A DNA stretch of 13,656 nucleotides from an uncultured archaeon (GTDB lineage Archaea; Asgardarchaeota; Thorarchaeia; Thorarchaeales; Thorarchaeaceae), in NCBI GenBank assembly GCA_964590575.1, contig CAZPWM010000085.1, forward strand, positions 1-13,656, read 5' to 3'. Shown piece by piece: positions 2,805 to 13,191 of this stretch (its first letter is position 1; every line of letters begins with the position of its first letter). Both the position numbers and the translations under genes were made by a program. The notes beneath the pieces were generated by a model. It was given only the letters and a program-made list of their open reading frames with translations, had not been told where the DNA came from and ran no database searches.

Positions 2805-3617
2805 ATGCAGATCACAACCAAGATCAAGTTTGATGATATTTGCAATATGCTATCAGGAAAAAGTATTCTTGTGGCATTCAGTGGAGGAGTAGATAGTACA
2901 GTTTTGGCTCACATTGCGAAAAAGTGTGCATCAAAGATTATGCTACTAACAATAGTGAGTCCAACGGTCCCAGAGAGTGAGCTTCGCGGCGCAAGAACCG
3001 TCGCGAAAGAATTAGGTCTCCAGCTGAAAGAAGATTCAGTCAATTGGCTCAAAGTAAGTAACCTTTCCGAGAATCCAGTTGACAGATGCTATACCTGCAA
3101 AAGGGCTCTAGCAGATCTCTGGTTGAAAAATGCTCAGAAGTTAGGATTTGGTACTGTCATTGAGGGGACAACTGCTACAGAAACTGAAGGGTATCGACCG
3201 GGGCTTGCAGCATTGAAGGAGTCAGGTGTAGATTCTCCATATCTTCAAGTAGGAGTCACAAAAGCTGAGATACGGGAATATGCCAGAGAGAACCATCTCT
3301 CCATCGCAGAGAAACCATCGGGGGCATGTCTTGCATCGCGATTTCCATATGGTACTGAAATAACAGTTGAACGCTTGACAATGGTCACGACAGTAGAAGA
3401 AAAGGTGCGAGAAATTTTTGGAGTTGAATGTGTTCGTGCGAGATTTCATGGAAACCTTGTCCGGGTCGAGGTAGGGTCAGAGGAACTTTCTAAGATGTAT
3501 GACCCAGAGAAACTCCATCAATTGGATAACGCAGCTAAAAATGCAGGATTCACTTATGTCACCCTAGATTTGCAGGGATACAGAACCGGAGCCATGGATG
3601 AAGGCTTGTCTAGCTAA
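2805..3617 (+). CDS. larE: LarE-family ATP-dependent sulfur transferase (PP-loop), with CxxC..C motif
   Basis: PP-loop VAFSGGVDS, NPVDRCYTCK, RPG, SPY..TKAEIR, KPSGACLASRFPYG, RARFHG..RVEV and YVTLDLQGYRTGAMD are LarE hallmarks. Confidence 0.88.
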   Translation: MQITTKIKFDDICNMLSGKSILVAFSGGVDSTVLAHIAKKCASKIMLLTIVSPTVPESELRGARTVAKELGLQLKEDSVNWLKVSNLSENPVDRCYTCKRALADLWLKNAQKLGFGTVIEGTTATETEGYRPGLAALKESGVDSPYLQVGVTKAEIREYARENHLSIAEKPSGACLASRFPYGTEITVERLTMVTTVEEKVREIFGVECVRARFHGNLVRVEVGSEELSKMYDPEKLHQLDNAAKNAGFTYVTLDLQGYRTGAMDEGLSS

Positions 3618-5950: not shown

Positions 5951-5998
5951 GATTTAAACGAGTCCGAATGGACGAGGTTGGATAATCAAACTTATAAG
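5951..5998. promoter_or_regulatory. Divergent archaeal promoter region: BRE/TATA-like AATCAAA-CTTATAAG for the tusA operon and TTTAAA box for the adh-peptidase operon
   Basis: CTTATAAG at 5991-5998 follows an A-rich BRE-like stretch and lies about 25-40 nt before the candidate tusA starts. TTTAAA at 5953-5958 lies upstream of adh on the minus strand. Confidence 0.5.
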
Positions 5999-6029
5999 AG
6001 ATAATTAACAATTGTTAGGTGTGAAATCC

Positions 6030-6275
6030 GTGTCAAATATGGAACCAGTTGAGAGCCTAGACTGTGTGGGGCTATTCTGTCCGCAACCACTTTTTCAGAC
6101 CCGAGAGGCAATTGATGGGTTGAAACCCGGTGAGATACTTGAGATGCTATCTGATGATCCAGCCGCAGAGGAGGACATCAAGAGGTTTGCTAAGAGGACT
6201 GGGAACATCCTTTTGAGCTTCGAGCGTCTTGAAGATGGCGTGCAGAGGTTTCTCATCAAAAAGAAGGAGGAATAA
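6030..6275 (+). CDS. tusA: TusA/SirA-family sulfur carrier protein
   Basis: LDCVGLFCPQP (CPxP persulfide Cys), GEILEMLSDDPAAEEDI and C-terminal FLIKK. Start uncertain: GTG 6021, GTG 6030 after AGGTGTGA, or ATG 6039. Confidence 0.92.
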   Translation: MSNMEPVESLDCVGLFCPQPLFQTREAIDGLKPGEILEMLSDDPAAEEDIKRFAKRTGNILLSFERLEDGVQRFLIKKKEE

Positions 6276-6278
6276 CAT

Positions 6279-6632
6279 TTGAGTAGCATCCTTTATGTAC
6301 AGACCAGTGACCAAGCTGAACGGCAGTATTCTCCATTTGTCTTAGCGCAGAGTGCAAAGGCGATGGATATTGATGCAAAAGTTTACTTCCTAGGACAAGC
6401 GTTAAGGGTCCTTGAACCTGGAGCAGCAGAAAAAATCAAGATAGGCAGCTTCCCTAGTCTTCATGAAACAATGAAGAAGACAATTGAGATGGGGATTCCA
6501 ATCTATGTATGTGAAGCTTCCAAACAGATGTTGGGTTGGGACAAAGTGGAACTTGACCCAGATCTGAAGATCGTTGGAGCTGCAACACTCAATGACCTTG
6601 TTCTAGAAGCGGACGCAACTATGTGGTTCTAG
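6279..6632 (+). CDS. DsrE/DsrF-like family sulfur relay protein
   Basis: 117 aa. A..AKAMD..AKVYF.G.A, GIPIYVCEAS (single conserved Cys78), IVGAAT....LEAD..MWF. TTG start with GGAGG RBS, 3 nt after the tusA stop. Confidence 0.85.
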   Translation: MSSILYVQTSDQAERQYSPFVLAQSAKAMDIDAKVYFLGQALRVLEPGAAEKIKIGSFPSLHETMKKTIEMGIPIYVCEASKQMLGWDKVELDPDLKIVGAATLNDLVLEADATMWF

Positions 6633-6653
6633 TTCAAGTTTGTGGGGATTGAA

Positions 6654-7817
6654 ATGAAACAAGTATACCTCGATTATCAGAGTGCAAAACCAGTTGATCT
6701 TAAAGTAATGGAAGGAATGATGAAGTATTTCCATGAGTCGTTTGGAAATCCATCATCTTTACATCATGTAGGAGATGTAGCTACAGATGCACTAGAGGAA
6801 AGTAGAAAGAAGATAGCTGGCTTCATTAATGCTGATGAGGACGAGATTATCTTCACATCTGGAGCAACAGAAGCTATCAATCTGGGTATTATTGGCTATG
6901 CTCTGAGGAACAAAAAGAAAGGCAATCATATCATAATTTCTGAGATAGAACACATATCGATACACAACATTGCAAAGTACCTTGAAAGAGAGGGATTTAC
7001 TATCTCAAAGGTTCCTGTTGACCAATTTGGTAAGGTAAGTCTGAGGAAACTCGAACAACGAATAACGGATAAAACAATTCTCATTTCTATAGGAATGGCA
7101 AGCAACGAGATTGGAACCATTCAACCAACTAGTGAGATTGGGAAACTAGCTGCTGAGAAGGGAATCGCATTCCATACAGATGCAGTAGCTGCAGAAGGAC
7201 TTGTTCCGATTGACGTTAAGAAAGATAATATCAACCTCATGGCACTCTCATCTAATGATCTCTACGGGCCTCGTGGTGTAGGAGTGATGTATATGCAGAA
7301 AAAGTACAGAGTCAATCCTATTATCATTGGAGGCGGTCAGGAGAGAGGCTTTAGATCTGGTAGCGAAGACATTCCTGGAATTGTAGGAATGCGGTTCGCA
7401 GCAGAAATAATGCAAAAGGAAATGAACACTGAGATTAAGCGATTCCAAGAGTATCGGGATAGAATGATAAAACAGGTACTAGATGAAGTGCCTGATAGTC
7501 ATCTCAATGGACATCCCAAAGACAGACTTGCATCTAATGCTCATTTCAGATTTGATGGGATTGAAGGCGAGTCGATTCTGCTTTCATTCAAAGATTTAGG
7601 TATCTCTGTTTCAACCGGGTCCGCTTGTACATCAAAAACACTTGAGCCATCGCACACTCTAATTGCTACTGGACTTTTGCATGAAGAAGCACATGGGTCG
7701 CTTCAACTTACTGCGGGTAGATTCAGTACAGATGATGATATTGATATAGTACTTGAAGCCGTACCAAAGGTGGTTTCACGACTAAGAGAACTATCTCCAA
7801 TTTACAAAACAAAGTAA
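6654..7817 (+). CDS. iscS: IscS/NifS-family class V PLP-fold protein, atypical (PLP Lys replaced by Asp); probably not an active cysteine desulfurase
   Basis: YLDY..P, FGNPSSLH, IIFTSGATEA, EH, NEIGTIQP, HTDAV, GGGQERGFRSG and STGSACTS identify group I IscS. The SxHKxxGPKG motif reads SSNDLYGPRG. ATG 6654 preferred over GTG 6642. Confidence 0.92.
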   Translation: MKQVYLDYQSAKPVDLKVMEGMMKYFHESFGNPSSLHHVGDVATDALEESRKKIAGFINADEDEIIFTSGATEAINLGIIGYALRNKKKGNHIIISEIEHISIHNIAKYLEREGFTISKVPVDQFGKVSLRKLEQRITDKTILISIGMASNEIGTIQPTSEIGKLAAEKGIAFHTDAVAAEGLVPIDVKKDNINLMALSSNDLYGPRGVGVMYMQKKYRVNPIIIGGGQERGFRSGSEDIPGIVGMRFAAEIMQKEMNTEIKRFQEYRDRMIKQVLDEVPDSHLNGHPKDRLASNAHFRFDGIEGESILLSFKDLGISVSTGSACTSKTLEPSHTLIATGLLHEEAHGSLQLTAGRFSTDDDIDIVLEAVPKVVSRLRELSPIYKTK

Positions 7818-7829
7818 GGGTAATGGAAG

Positions 7830-8609
7830 ATGAAATCAACTAAATATAGTGAAAAAGTTTTAGATCATTTCCGCAATCCACGGAATGTAGGAACTCTTGA
7901 AGGAGATGATGTAGCGGTAGGTAAGGTTGGTAATCCAACTTGTGGAGATATCATGGAGGTCTTTATTCGCATCGATGGAGATGTTATCACCGATGCCAAA
8001 TTCAGAACCTTCGGTTGTGGGTCTGCAATAGCGACGACAAGCATGACGACTGAGATGGTCAAAGGAATGACCCTTGATGAGGCAATGGAGTTAACTCGTC
8101 AAGATGTCGCTGATGAATTGGATGGACTGCCACCAATTAAGATGCACTGCTCTAACCTTGCAGCTGATGCCTTACACGAAGCAATCAAAAGTTATCGGAA
8201 AGGCAGAGGCGAAGATGTACCTGAAGAGAACGAAAAGGTGAAGGAAGAGGTTGAGTGTCTTATTGGGAAGGATGAGTTTCTTAACAAAGGACTCTATCTT
8301 AATGTAGAAGATATTAATGAGTTCAAGGATCGAAGAACTCTGATTCTTTATTCAGGCGATGAATCAGTAGAAACTGCAATAAATATTTCAGAGGTCAGTG
8401 AACGCGTGATTCTTCTCACACCAGATGAAACCCTTGTACTCAATCCAGATCTTGCTGAGAAACTCGCAAGCTCCGGAGTTAAAGTCTTGTATCAATCGAA
8501 ACTTCTTGAGATTCGTGGCGAGTTCGAAGTTGAAAAAGTTCTGATATTTAATATTGATGAGGATGAAGACTATGAACTCTTCGTTGACGCTGTCGTAATC
8601 ATTGAATAA
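7830..8609 (+). CDS. iscU: IscU/NifU-N Fe-S scaffold fused to a degenerate thioredoxin-reductase-like Rossmann domain
   Basis: YSEKVLDHFRNPRNVG, GNPTCGD, FGCGSAIA and LPPIKMHCSNLA (three Cys plus Asp and His). About 117 extra C-terminal residues resemble the TrxB NADPH domain. Confidence 0.9.
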   Translation: MKSTKYSEKVLDHFRNPRNVGTLEGDDVAVGKVGNPTCGDIMEVFIRIDGDVITDAKFRTFGCGSAIATTSMTTEMVKGMTLDEAMELTRQDVADELDGLPPIKMHCSNLAADALHEAIKSYRKGRGEDVPEENEKVKEEVECLIGKDEFLNKGLYLNVEDINEFKDRRTLILYSGDESVETAINISEVSERVILLTPDETLVLNPDLAEKLASSGVKVLYQSKLLEIRGEFEVEKVLIFNIDEDEDYELFVDAVVIIE

Positions 8610-8653: not shown

Positions 8654-9115
8654 ATGATAGATATCAAACCTGCAACTCCAGAGGATATTCCATTAATCGA
8701 GGAGATGTATAGGAGGGAGGTTGAGGACCACGCGGAACGAGCTCAAACATTCGCAGAGGACCTGGTTCTGAGATACAAGACCCTTCTTGCTGTCAAAGAT
8801 AATACTGTGTGCGGAACAGTATCATGGGAACCTCGAGGGGGGTTCGACGATGGTGTGGTCGAGATGATTGGGCTTGGTGTGAGTGAAGGTTTCAAGCGTC
8901 AAGGCATAGCGACGAAGCTGGTTGATGAGATGATTGAGGTGGCTTCACAGTTCTTTACATCAAAGGGATATTCTTTGAGGGTAATTCTCCTGTTTATGGA
9001 GCGAGAAAATGAAACCGCGCGAAAATTCTACTCCGTAAACAGATTCAAAGAGGTTGCTACTATACCCTCACTCTATCCAAGCGATGATGCATCCATCTGG
9101 ACGCGTCATCTCTGA
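8654..9115 (+). CDS. GNAT family N-acetyltransferase
   Basis: IKPATPEDIP N-terminus, acetyl-CoA motif A GVSEGFKRQGIATKL, and motif B ENETARKFY...F. Confidence 0.88.
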   Translation: MIDIKPATPEDIPLIEEMYRREVEDHAERAQTFAEDLVLRYKTLLAVKDNTVCGTVSWEPRGGFDDGVVEMIGLGVSEGFKRQGIATKLVDEMIEVASQFFTSKGYSLRVILLFMERENETARKFYSVNRFKEVATIPSLYPSDDASIWTRHL

Positions 9116-9136: not shown

Positions 9137-9823
9137 ATGACCAAGGGACCAATCATTGGAACCCTACAAGAGCGGTCTCTGCATGCCAGCTTGAAGGAAC
9201 TCTACATGACCGGAGATGCAAGAGACGAGGTGTCGATTGATGGATTTGTTGTGGATGTTATCAGAAATGGACTCATAATTGAAATTCAGACTCGAAATTT
9301 CGCGGCTATCAAGAACAAGCTATCTTCGCTTCTCAAGAATCACCCTGTCAGACTCGTGTATCCGCTACCCAAGAAAAAGTGGATAGTGAAAGAAACGCCA
9401 GATGGAGCGAAACAGCTCAGTCGAAGGTCTTCTCCCAAGAGTTGTGGATTTGAAGATGTTTTCAATGAGCTTGTGCGAATACCAAATTTTATAGCTCACT
9501 CAAATTTCTCAATCGAGGTGTTGTTGACCGAGGAGGAAGAGATTCGCCGCCAAGATGGACAAGGGAGCTGGCGGAGAAAGGGGTGGAGTATCGTGGATCG
9601 GAAACTTATCACTATCATTGACAAGCGTCTGTTCGAAAAACCACTGGACTTCCTGCAATTCATCCCAGACACAATTGAGAGACCTTTCAAGAATTCAGAC
9701 CTTGCGAAAGCTCTTGGTATACCACAACGACTCGGCCAAAGACTGACGTATTGTCTGAGAAAGATGAATGTTCTAAAAAAAGTTGGTAAAGAAGGAAATG
9801 CGCTCCTGCATGACATCGGATGA
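9137..9823 (+). CDS. Hypothetical protein, PD-(D/E)XK/restriction-endonuclease-like N-domain with C-terminal winged HTH
   Basis: ERSLH..LK, EV.IDGFVVDV, IIEIQT pattern. C-terminal SDLAKALGI......YCLRKM.VLKKVGKEGNA. GGGTGA RBS 6 nt before ATG. Confidence 0.65.
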   Translation: MTKGPIIGTLQERSLHASLKELYMTGDARDEVSIDGFVVDVIRNGLIIEIQTRNFAAIKNKLSSLLKNHPVRLVYPLPKKKWIVKETPDGAKQLSRRSSPKSCGFEDVFNELVRIPNFIAHSNFSIEVLLTEEEEIRRQDGQGSWRRKGWSIVDRKLITIIDKRLFEKPLDFLQFIPDTIERPFKNSDLAKALGIPQRLGQRLTYCLRKMNVLKKVGKEGNALLHDIG

Positions 9824-12015: not shown

Positions 12016-13191
12016 TTACAGGACTTCCAGGCCAGTCATCAGATCATCCAACAAATCTGCTGAATCTTCTATTCCTATAGACAAACGAACCGTGGATTCT
12101 GAGATACCCATCTCATTGAGAGCTTTCTCGTCAAGACCATAATGCGTAGTCAGTGCAGGAATGCTTGCCAAGCTCTCGACACCTCCTAGTGATACTGCAT
12201 TCAAGAAGATTTGAAGAGAGTCTACGAACTTGCTTGTCCCGGCCAAGTCGGAATCAAGGGTTATCGCCATCATGCCTCCAAAACCATCCATTTGTTTCTT
12301 AGCTACATCATGTTGAGGATGACTTGCAAGACCCGGATAATGAACTTCTCTGATTCGTGAGTCATGGGACAGTTTCTCAGCCAAAGACATAGCATTCGAG
12401 TTGTGCTTCTCCATCCGGACTCCAAGTGTCTTAATCCCTCGATCAAGAAGGAATGAGGCAAATGGGTCCATGGTACCGCCGAGTAATTTTGCAGCGCTGC
12501 GAACGTCTGCCATCAACTCTTTTGAGCCAGAGATAGTCCCTGCGATTATGTCACTGTGACCACCGAGATATTTGGTTGCACTATGCATCACAAGGTCCAC
12601 ACCCAATGTGTGAGGTCTCTGGTTGATTGGAGAGCCAAATGTACTATCAATCATGCTAATTGTACCCGTTTCACGAGCTGCATCGGCAACTTTCTTGATA
12701 TCAATAATCTTCAATGTGGGATTGGTAGGGGTTTCAAAGAAACAGAGTTTATAGGAGGATCCGGAGTCTGAGAGTTTATCAGCGAGTTCATCTGTATCAA
12801 CATAGTCAACCTGAATACCATTAGGTGAGAGTATCTTGTTGAAGAGATTGACAGTTCCTCCGTAGATCGAATCACTTGAGAGAATGCGCTCGCCACTTTT
12901 TACATGACCCATTATAGCTGAAGAGATAGCAGCCATCCCAGATGCCAGAACGTGTGTGTCTTCTGTGCACTCCAATGCATTGATTTTCTCTTCAACGCTC
13001 TTCGTTGTTGGATTACTCCATCGTGTGTATACATCTTTCCCGGTTTTACCCTGTACTGAGTCAAGCATTTGTTGTTGATTCTCAAAGACAAAGGTGGAGG
13101 TTTGGACAATAGGGACCACCGCAGGTCCGGATGTTTGTGTGTGTTCACCCTGAACGCAGAGAGTGGATGGTTGTCTTTTCCTAGCATTCAT
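12016..13191 (-). CDS. Cys/Met metabolism PLP-dependent enzyme (cystathionine gamma-synthase/gamma-lyase family)
   Basis: PIVQTSTF, YTRWSNPT, ASGMAAI, YGGT, ETPTNP, DSTF.SP, HSATKYLGGHSD (PLP Lys intact), YPGL, AVSLGGVESL, VRLSIGIE. GGAG RBS upstream. Confidence 0.92.
   Translation of the reverse strand: MNARKRQPSTLCVQGEHTQTSGPAVVPIVQTSTFVFENQQQMLDSVQGKTGKDVYTRWSNPTTKSVEEKINALECTEDTHVLASGMAAISSAIMGHVKSGERILSSDSIYGGTVNLFNKILSPNGIQVDYVDTDELADKLSDSGSSYKLCFFETPTNPTLKIIDIKKVADAARETGTISMIDSTFGSPINQRPHTLGVDLVMHSATKYLGGHSDIIAGTISGSKELMADVRSAAKLLGGTMDPFASFLLDRGIKTLGVRMEKHNSNAMSLAEKLSHDSRIREVHYPGLASHPQHDVAKKQMDGFGGMMAITLDSDLAGTSKFVDSLQIFLNAVSLGGVESLASIPALTTHYGLDEKALNEMGISESTVRLSIGIEDSADLLDDLMTGLEVL

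Follow-up and report, generated by a model that had tools for sequence, protein, structure and literature searches.

Structures of an inactive IscS–IscU pair from Archaeoglobus fulgidus have been available since 2012. In this pair, IscS has been described as lacking cysteine desulfurase activity, binding pyridoxamine 5'-phosphate (PMP) and coordinating the [2Fe-2S] cluster of IscU through a Cys of its own (PMC8918507; PMC7585200). A 2022 review asks how this cluster can form without a desulfurase function; there, the source of its sulfur is left as a question and sulfide is hypothesised (PMC8918507). Here, we describe a four-gene cassette, tusA-dsrE-iscS*-iscU, from an uncultured Thorarchaeota archaeon. 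It lies in a stretch of 13,656 nt (the window), which is the entire contig C85 of genome G000 (3.4 Mb, 91.45% complete). In this cassette, a probably inactive relative of A. fulgidus IscS (IscS*) is encoded directly behind two sulfur carriers, TusA and DsrE. The cassette represents a genuine and conserved variation on the known inactive IscS/IscU system; in the literature searched, no paper links TusA or DsrE to an IscS without the catalytic lysine.

Several described systems resemble parts of this locus. The A. fulgidus IscS2–IscU pair (4EB5, 4EB7 and 4HVK; D199K variant, 4R5F) has the same SSND motif, loop Cys and adjacent IscU, and the isc1 cluster of Methanosarcina acetivorans likewise encodes an IscS1 devoid of the catalytic lysine. 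That cluster includes four genes to which no function has been assigned. The canonical iron–sulfur cluster (ISC) operon, iscRSUA-hscBA-fdx-iscX, differs in that iscA, hscBA and fdx are absent from the window open reading frames (ORFs); in canonical ISC assembly, ferredoxin, with NADPH and ferredoxin-NADP reductase, gives electrons to IscS/IscU (PMC4547094). The minimal iron–sulfur (MIS; MisS–MisU) and SUF-like minimal (SMS; SmsBC) systems also consist of just two IscS/IscU-like core proteins, with HscAB, Fdx and IscA missing. MIS was called the least studied Fe–S system in a 2026 review, whose mentions of TusA, in the portion available, concern Escherichia coli (PMC13066941), and SMS is reported to use sulfide instead of cysteine (10.1101/2024.03.20.586028). 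The likeness to MIS is one of gene content: MisS is described as a cysteine desulfurase, whereas IscS* is without the catalytic residues and is accompanied by two sulfur carriers.

The carriers have precedents of their own. The E. coli IscS–TusA relay (3LVJ, Tus system) pairs members of the same families: in the crystal, about 4 Å separates the TusA Cys from the loop Cys of IscS, which it faces, and W45, E49 and D52 of IscS bind TusA (PMC2854127). There, however, sulfur is donated by an active IscS and accepted by TusA, and tusA lies outside the isc operon. Any transfer in the window would have to run in the opposite direction, because IscS* should be unable to make a persulfide. In the TusA–DsrE3 relays of sulfur oxidisers (sHdr, Dsr), small carriers are encoded side by side, as in the window; these carriers can be loaded by polysulfide and pass their sulfur on, and archaeal DsrE3A is described as a thiosulfonate carrier (PMC11094781). 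Those relays feed enzymes of dissimilatory oxidation, whereas the window carriers neighbour an Fe–S scaffold pair, and profile scans of the window ORFs detected no shdr or dsr genes.

IscS* and its association with two sulfur carriers

The iscS* gene (6654–7817, + strand) encodes a 387-aa type I IscS homologue without the lysine that binds pyridoxal 5'-phosphate (PLP). Its product matches PF00266 (Aminotran_5; E 7e-73) and the NifS/IscS models (E 1e-118 to 1e-136), all under the equivalog cut-offs, and its best match among solved structures is A. fulgidus IscS2 (4eb5_A/4eb7/4hvk; E 2e-131 over residues 4–385). Asp202, in the motif SSND, replaces the Lys of SGHK at the position of E. coli IscS K206; SSND is shared with 4eb5_A, and SSNK is found at this place in 4r5f, the engineered D199K variant. 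The loop Cys325 is kept, within GSAC. Compared with E. coli IscS, the window protein carries K206D, H205N, Q183A and R354Q, and it keeps H104, D180, S203, A327 and C328. R354 is the residue that binds the substrate carboxylate.

These losses recur throughout the family. When 64 Asp-type and 46 Lys-type sequences (types defined by the residue at K206) were mapped onto E. coli IscS, K206 was Asp or Glu in 64/64 Asp-type and Lys in 46/46 Lys-type proteins, H205 was Asn in 64/64 and His in 44/46, Q183 was Ala in 61/64 and Gln in 46/46, and R354 was Arg in 0/64 and 45/46, respectively. None of the 64 Asp-type sequences has lost H104, D180, A327 or the loop Cys328. The catalytic apparatus thus appears to have been dismantled in a coordinated way, with the cofactor pocket and the loop Cys preserved. 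IscS* is most probably a catalytically dead orthologue of A. fulgidus IscS2, predicted to form no PLP Schiff base and to have no hold on substrate cysteine; the four lost residues and the biochemistry of the A. fulgidus protein both argue that it lacks cysteine desulfurase activity. That IscS* still desulfurates cysteine in vivo with non-covalently bound PLP, passing its sulfur out to TusA/DsrE in the manner of the E. coli Tus relay, is barely credible. The retained H104, D180 and S203 would still offer ring stacking, N1 and phosphate contacts, and PLP or PMP is bound in the A. fulgidus structures (PMC8918507), but K206, H205, Q183 and R354 are lost together, and the A. fulgidus wild type is reported to be inactive, with PMP present in the D199K variant as well (PMC8918507).

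The Lys-to-Asp exchange is itself already known, since the residue pattern matches that of the published A. fulgidus protein. Likewise, the first-pass annotation of this DNA had suggested an adaptor or cluster-ligand role for IscS*, and this is how the A. fulgidus orthologue is already read in the literature (PMC8918507; PMC7585200). G000 also encodes a second class V protein without the lysine (G000:C9:23067-24281, +); it is SufS-like (TIGR01979, 238 bits), with FSANIG at the HK position of SufS and the Cys motif RSGVLC kept.

Two cassette genes precede iscS*. The first, tusA (6030–6275, +), encodes a member of the TusA family (PF01206, 81 bits against a gathering cut-off of 28.6) with the active-site motif C14-P-Q-P (numbered from the Met codon at 6039). 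Its nearest solved structure is E. coli TusA (1dcj/3lvj_C; E 5e-10), yet its score with the E. coli-type equivalog model NF001423 is 47.5 bits, below the cut-off of 78; it is thus a member of the family and no equivalog of E. coli TusA. The second, dsrE (6279–6632, +), encodes a single-domain DsrE-family carrier of 117 aa (PF02635, 62.1 bits against a cut-off of 22.7), in which Cys78, within IYVCEAS, aligns with the Cys of the nearest solved structure, 3mc3 (E 4e-10). On the basis of this match, the cassette protein appears to be DsrE3-like; 3mc3 has been assigned to the S. solfataricus SSO1125 protein within an account of archaeal DsrE3A proteins (PMC11094781). The translations bear out the earlier claim that TusA (CPQP), DsrE (Cys78) and IscS* (Cys325 in GSAC) each retain a sulfur-carrying Cys.

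To compare neighbourhoods, the window was joined by 80 loci from named genomes and by 30 loci found among 401 genomes sampled from the phylum to which a Methanoregula genome belongs. The 30 are the best matches to an Asp-type query, which enriches them for Asp-type loci by design; the Lys-type controls come mostly from clostridia, methanogens, DPANN and some Asgard genomes. Among 114 IscS ORFs scoring at least 200 bits, 67 were Asp/Glu-type (65 reading ND, 2 reading NE) and 47 Lys-type. TusA and DsrE neighbours were called with profiles built from small proteins only, counts were restricted to loci with at least 800 nt of upstream DNA, and Lys-type loci were scored for co-oriented tusA/dsrE within 1.2 kb. 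The first-pass annotation had asked whether Lys-to-Asp IscS co-occurs with adjacent tusA-dsrE, and it does: tusA and/or dsrE lies directly upstream in 60/60 Asp/Glu-type loci (both genes in 30, tusA only in 27, dsrE only in 3, namely L091, L097 and L114; neither in 0), against 0/45 Lys-type loci, in all 45 of which both genes are missing. Seven Asp-type and two Lys-type ORFs were set aside for short upstream DNA; of these seven, three have nothing upstream (contig end), two have dsrE only, one has tusA only and one has both.

An IQ-TREE phylogeny built on 111 IscS rows puts every one of the 65 Asp-type rows into a single clade (SH-aLRT 100), which comprises Thorarchaeota, Hodarchaeota, other Promethearchaeota, Bathyarchaeia and genomes of the Halobacteriota phylum. 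The link between lysine loss and the carriers thus goes back to one origin and has been kept across three phyla at 50–65% IscS identity. It extends to a close relative of the A. fulgidus protein. The A. fulgidus-like locus L099 reads tusA (77 aa)-dsrE (119 aa)-iscS-iscU (153 aa), and its IscS is about 90% identical, by manual count, to the crystallised protein (residues 1–382; E 2e-233); L097 (G176:C1:510841-514980), in which the first 60 IscS residues differ from 4eb5_A at one position by eye, has only a dsrE ORF (94 aa as called) upstream, with no tusA ORF detected there down to 45 aa. Within the text covered, the A. fulgidus publications do not mention TusA or DsrE (PMC8918507; PMC7585200). 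A strict genetic link that spans phyla, joining the loss of the catalytic lysine to two dedicated sulfur carriers, offers a concrete candidate for the missing sulfur step of A. fulgidus.

Some loci of the set call for separate comment. G176 contains a second Asp-type iscS copy besides L097, with L112 listed alongside. In L100 (G271:C105), a fragment of a Lys-type iscS is found in divergent orientation 42 nt away from the tusA of an Asp-type tusA-dsrE-iscS*-iscU cassette, such that active and dead IscS genes are neighbours. Two loci from metagenome-assembled genomes labelled Actinomycetes bacterium (L021) and WOR-3 (L022) carry the full cassette with the IscU relic described below; their IscS proteins are sister to the Thorarchaeota group within the Asgard part of the tree, which suggests mis-binned contigs or transfer.

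The active Cys of each carrier is invariant. C14, P15 and P17 are invariant among 41 cassette TusA sequences, CPxP is kept in 59/59 cassette TusA neighbours, and the Cys motif of DsrE is kept in 36/36 DsrE neighbours. Such invariance (59/59 and 36/36) would be unexpected for a purely structural role, and it makes us regard as very improbable the idea that TusA, with or without DsrE, is a non-catalytic modulator or assembly factor of IscS*–IscU with no sulfur passing through the carriers, even though the tail of IscU, considered next, illustrates that this system tolerates relic modules without catalytic function.

The IscU scaffold and its reductase-like tail

The last gene of the cassette (7830–8609, +) encodes a 259-aa fusion of IscU with a reductase-like tail, compared with 153 aa for the crystallised IscU of A. 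fulgidus. The scaffold domain (residues 1–125; 7830–8204, +) matches PF01592 (NifU_N; E 5e-48) and passes the TIGR03419 cut-off (192 bits against 187.9), with 7c8m (E 1e-50) and 4eb5_C (E 7e-44) as matching structures. The residues Cys38, Asp40, Cys63, His106 and Cys107 are all present, in line with the first-pass reading that IscU keeps its cluster ligands and with a function as scaffold.

The tail (residues 146–257; 8265–8600, +) corresponds to the NAD(P)H-binding subdomain of a flavoenzyme resembling thioredoxin reductase (TrxR) and ferredoxin-NADP+ reductase. It matches the NADPH domain of thioredoxin reductases (TIGR01292, E 6e-12; 2zbw and 3f8d, E 2e-6). A model predicted from 30 homologous tails (mean predicted local distance difference test score, pLDDT, 84.8) gave 3f8d, 2zbw, 3lzw and 6gas as top Foldseek matches (template modelling score 0.81; root-mean-square deviation 1.5–1.7 Å over ~119 residues). 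In S. solfataricus TrxR-B3, a T. thermophilus TrxR-like protein and Bacillus ferredoxin-NADP+ reductases, the part on which the model superposes is the NAD(P)H subdomain. Although the tail would share this subdomain fold with the TrxR-like ferredoxin-NADP+ reductases and low-molecular-mass thioredoxin reductases (2ZBW, 3LZW, 6GAS, 3F8D), it has no FAD domain, and the motifs GxGxxA, CxxC and HRRD are absent. Across the 30 fusion proteins, no Cys is conserved, and tGDxSxExA stands in place of GGGxSAxEEA.

Complete versions of the fusion survive in relatives. Three loci within the tusA/dsrE-iscS* family, L101 (167–1495, −), L106 (1926–3257, +) and L114 (156–1487, −), encode full IscU–flavoreductase proteins (NifU_N + Pyr_redox_2, 443–444 aa); IscS of L101 and L106 reads LASND and is Asp-type. 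The L114 protein keeps GGGPGG, GGGNSA and HRKD and has no CxxC, as in TrxR-like ferredoxin-NADP+ reductases. The window tail aligns with residues 256–370 of this 444-aa protein (31% identity, E 3e-15), YSGDESVETA standing where L114 has GGGNSAVDAA, and the window IscU protein aligns with none of its FAD-binding domain (GxGxxG). From this alignment and the motif losses, the window tail represents the NAD(P)H subdomain cut out of such a reductase and stripped of nucleotide and redox motifs; sequence and predicted structure alike mark it as a non-catalytic relic of a flavin reductase and not an enzyme. Together with the residue losses in IscS*, this agrees with the first-pass description of both the desulfurase and the reductase module as degenerate. 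The intact fusion of the relatives, on the other hand, is a candidate built-in electron donor, and it points to an unrecognised electron donor of minimal ISC-type systems.

A word-based protein search returned 212 clusters with this tail among 375 candidates. Among the best 120 of these 212 clusters, 117 match PF01592 only and three match no domain, and the source names are simply NifU or IscU scaffold.

Sulfur supply to the cassette

In G000, no match to SUFBD_core was detected, although 14/14 control genomes have one, and the only NifU_N match is the window gene; the cassette is the only Fe–S scaffold system detected there. In a survey of 72 genomes of the order at a completeness of at least 80% (24 of them high-quality), Asp-type IscS is present in 64/72 genomes (22/24 high-quality) and SufBD in 32/72. 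Cross-reading the tables gives 35 genomes with the cassette IscS and no SufBD, 29 with both, three with SufBD only and five with neither. The cassette is thus a core system of the order and often, in about half of the genomes sampled, the only scaffold system detected; for this reason, it bears on how Fe–S clusters are made in the archaeal relatives of eukaryotes.

The first-pass annotation had called the operon desulfurase-independent, and the claim is supported only in part. In G000, a stand-alone SufS/CsdA-like protein (G000:C8:35235-36500, −) with the motifs SVHKM and RSGWHC scores 421 bits with TIGR01979, below the curated cut-off of 475, and an orthologue occurs in 71/72 genomes of the order, including 24/24 high-quality ones; the genome and order of the window are therefore not free of desulfurases. 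PF00266 matches at E <= 1e-20 were also surveyed in ten other cassette genomes, whose completeness is not stated. At this threshold, five of them (G029, G176, G069, G324 and G334) show no Lys-type class V desulfurase, containing only Asp-type IscS and an AGXT-like (GSQK) aminotransferase, and the other five have a SufS-like protein and/or Lys-type IscS. Since half of these genomes show no such enzyme, a class V desulfurase cannot be a general requirement of the cassette family.

Taken together, we propose that TusA and the DsrE3-like protein most likely replace the lost sulfur-mobilising step. They would carry sulfane sulfur as a persulfide (or thiosulfonate) to the loop Cys of IscS* and/or to IscU, where the delivered sulfur would be reduced and combined with iron, with IscS* serving as sulfur-receiving arm and as fourth cluster ligand for IscU. 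The reductase relic and the intact fusions of the relatives hint that the sulfur arrives as S0, the reduction of which needs two electrons; the intact IscU–reductase fusions would fit this need. The relic tail of the window cannot be expected to reduce sulfur and may be structural, and electrons would here have to come from another donor. The sulfur might ultimately derive from cysteine, through the stand-alone SufS-like enzyme, or else from sulfane sulfur or sulfide in the environment. Overall, a conserved cassette in which TusA and DsrE feed a dead IscS*–IscU pair is the explanation toward which, by a small margin over doubt, we incline.

Several points weigh against this explanation. Synteny within one clade may count as a single historical event, though one kept across three phyla. 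Neither carrier can be strictly required, because 27/60 loci are without dsrE and 3/60 without tusA, and further roles for the carriers are indicated by a second tusA-dsrE pair and a DsrEFH-like set in G000. These are a divergently arranged pair with a small membrane protein (G000:C37:3015-4210) and a DsrE/DsrF/DsrH-like triplet of 121, 119 and 101 aa (G000:C163:3125-4165, −); in total, the genome has two TusA and four DsrE-family genes, including the cassette pair. The TusA-binding residues W45, E49 and D52 of E. coli IscS are not specifically conserved in the Asp-type clade, and any contact of TusA or DsrE with IscS* or IscU is conjectural. Mapping of all the hot spots (W45, E49, D52, D65, R220 and R237) did not split Asp-type from Lys-type proteins and was uninformative, and two runs of complex prediction for IscS* with TusA (41-row alignments) scored 0.00 and count neither way. 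The missing SufBD of G000 may reflect incompleteness; 10/25 genomes of the same genus have SufBD. Finally, a minimal SUF system (10.1101/2024.03.20.586028) and IscS-deficient E. coli (PMC13015791) are reported to draw their sulfur from sulfide, and the carriers may be needless for sulfur supply because free sulfide alone can feed Fe–S assembly in an anaerobe.

This last point leads to an explanation in which free sulfide feeds IscS*–IscU and TusA/DsrE perform another task (sulfane-sulfur handling or detoxification, or thiolation of tRNA or a cofactor), sharing only their regulation with the scaffold pair. Besides the desulfurase-less assembly reported in those two cases, sulfide has been hypothesised for A. 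fulgidus (PMC8918507), DsrE4 proteins have been proposed to detoxify reactive sulfur species (PMC11094781), and one or the other carrier can be missing from the cassette. However, the 60/60 versus 0/45 distribution tracks the loss of the catalytic lysine and not IscU or anaerobiosis: within the sample, Lys-type IscS–IscU loci from clostridia and anaerobic archaea are without carriers. Moreover, the 3–21-nt gaps, and stop codons that overlap the next start in relatives, speak for a single translationally coupled unit. Shared regulation with free sulfide is therefore improbable in our estimation.

A different source is conceivable with the relay left in the same direction. Here, the SufS-like desulfurase on contig C8 would persulfurate TusA/DsrE, which would pass the sulfur on to IscS*–IscU; such a split ISC machine is a sub-case of the relay proposed above. 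Because a SufS-like enzyme is encoded, cysteine-derived persulfide could load the carriers in G000. The protein has the HK and Cys motifs and a TIGR01979 score of 421 bits, its orthologue is nearly universal in the order, and its usual acceptor is missing, as the neighbourhood of the gene contains no SufE, SufU or SufBCD genes and SUFBD_core has no match in the genome; the Lys-type iscS fragment divergently adjoining the cassette of L100 also fits. Nevertheless, the gene is unlinked to the cassette, on a different contig of G000, the TIGR01979 score is under the cut-off, and five of the ten other cassette genomes show no such enzyme at the PF00266 threshold. We consider this split machine rather unlikely, if worth keeping in mind.

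The relay from TusA/DsrE to IscS*–IscU also has a stronger form, which we advance only tentatively. This would be a self-contained, cysteine-independent Fe–S machine, in which TusA/DsrE load sulfane sulfur (from polysulfide, thiosulfate or oxidised sulfide) on the loop Cys of the dead IscS, IscS acts only as receiving arm and fourth ligand, and electrons once came from the IscU-fused flavoreductase. If true, such a machine would be the main or only Fe–S scaffold system of many Asgard archaea and would supply the missing sulfur route of A. fulgidus.

Gene calls, upstream DNA and neighbouring genes

The four genes are co-oriented and separated by gaps of 3, 21 and 12 nt; the tight packing behind one TATA-like box noted in the first-pass annotation is confirmed. 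The tusA start was set at GTG 6030, with ATG 6039 and TTG 6012 as alternatives; GTG 6030 is likely because 8/9 aligned Thorarchaeota relatives have ATG at that position. The dsrE gene starts with TTG, with GGAGG 8 nt 5' of it, and iscS* with ATG (GTG 6642 is possible). The nearest public relatives of G000 are Candidatus Thorarchaeota metagenome-assembled genomes, at 84–90% IscS identity, and the base composition of the window shows no anomaly.

The TATA-like box TTATAAG (5992–5998, +) lies 32 nt upstream of GTG 6030 and is invariant in 10/10 aligned Thorarchaeota upstream regions, in which the surrounding intergenic DNA diverges. Between it and the tusA start lies a near-palindrome, TTAACAATTGTTAG (6005–6018, +), a candidate operator with a TTAAC..GT core conserved across the 10 aligned loci. 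The palindrome class TTAAC[AG]AT[TCA]GTTA[AG] occurs at six more sites in G000 (C15:44000, C22:8523-8536, C31:9774, C35:19121, C42:11358 and C42:16678), with 10 strand hits against ~0.8 expected from base composition. Four of the six other sites are located 18–27 nt 5' of start codons, those of genes for an FTR1 iron permease, an HMA-domain P-type ATPase, an aldo/keto reductase and a fasciclin protein. This distribution suggests that the near-palindrome is a shared, possibly metal-responsive repressor site.

Near-identical pieces of the contig were found in four sediment metatranscriptome libraries, covering 5–12 of 30 bins, with DNA carry-over possible. One piece bridges tusA/dsrE (X1 record 2) and two bridge iscS/iscU (X2 record 12, X4 record 17); in the partial coverage of these four runs, none bridges dsrE/iscS and none extends beyond 8133, the sole piece past 7890 being X4 record 18 (8049–8083), which has loose ends. 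The pieces give a weak hint that the cassette is expressed in sediment.

Two genes downstream of iscU were rejected as members of the cassette. A GNAT acetyltransferase gene (8654–9115, +) and a 228-aa ORF without a Pfam match (9137–9823, +) follow only in loci of the same genus, and not in L018, L019 or beyond; each is matched in eight other loci, all Thorarchaeota-type with 84–90% IscS identity.

In non-Thorarchaeota Asgard loci, a protein of 738–797 aa is encoded 0.9–2.7 kb downstream of the cassette (e.g., L025:7197-9587; also L023, L024, L026, L027, L029, L030, L032, L035, L037, L039 and L040). It combines Pyr_redox_2, Pyr_redox_dim, rhodanese, TusA and second rhodanese domains and resembles CoA-disulfide/persulfide reductases. 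Its gene is a lineage-specific neighbour, as G000 has matches only to the N-terminal reductase part (23–29% identity, query residues 3–447 at most) and none to the rhodanese and TusA domains.

Two other genes on the window contig may be mentioned for their annotation. One encodes a LarE-type ATP-dependent sacrificial sulfur transferase (2805–3617, +; TIGR00268, 255 bits) and the other a PLP enzyme of Cys/Met metabolism (12016–13191, −; PF01053, E 6e-125). Each has ORF matches in just four other loci, most of them from close relatives within Thorarchaeota; the LarE matches beyond these relatives, in L048 and L049, lie in Lys-type methanogen loci.

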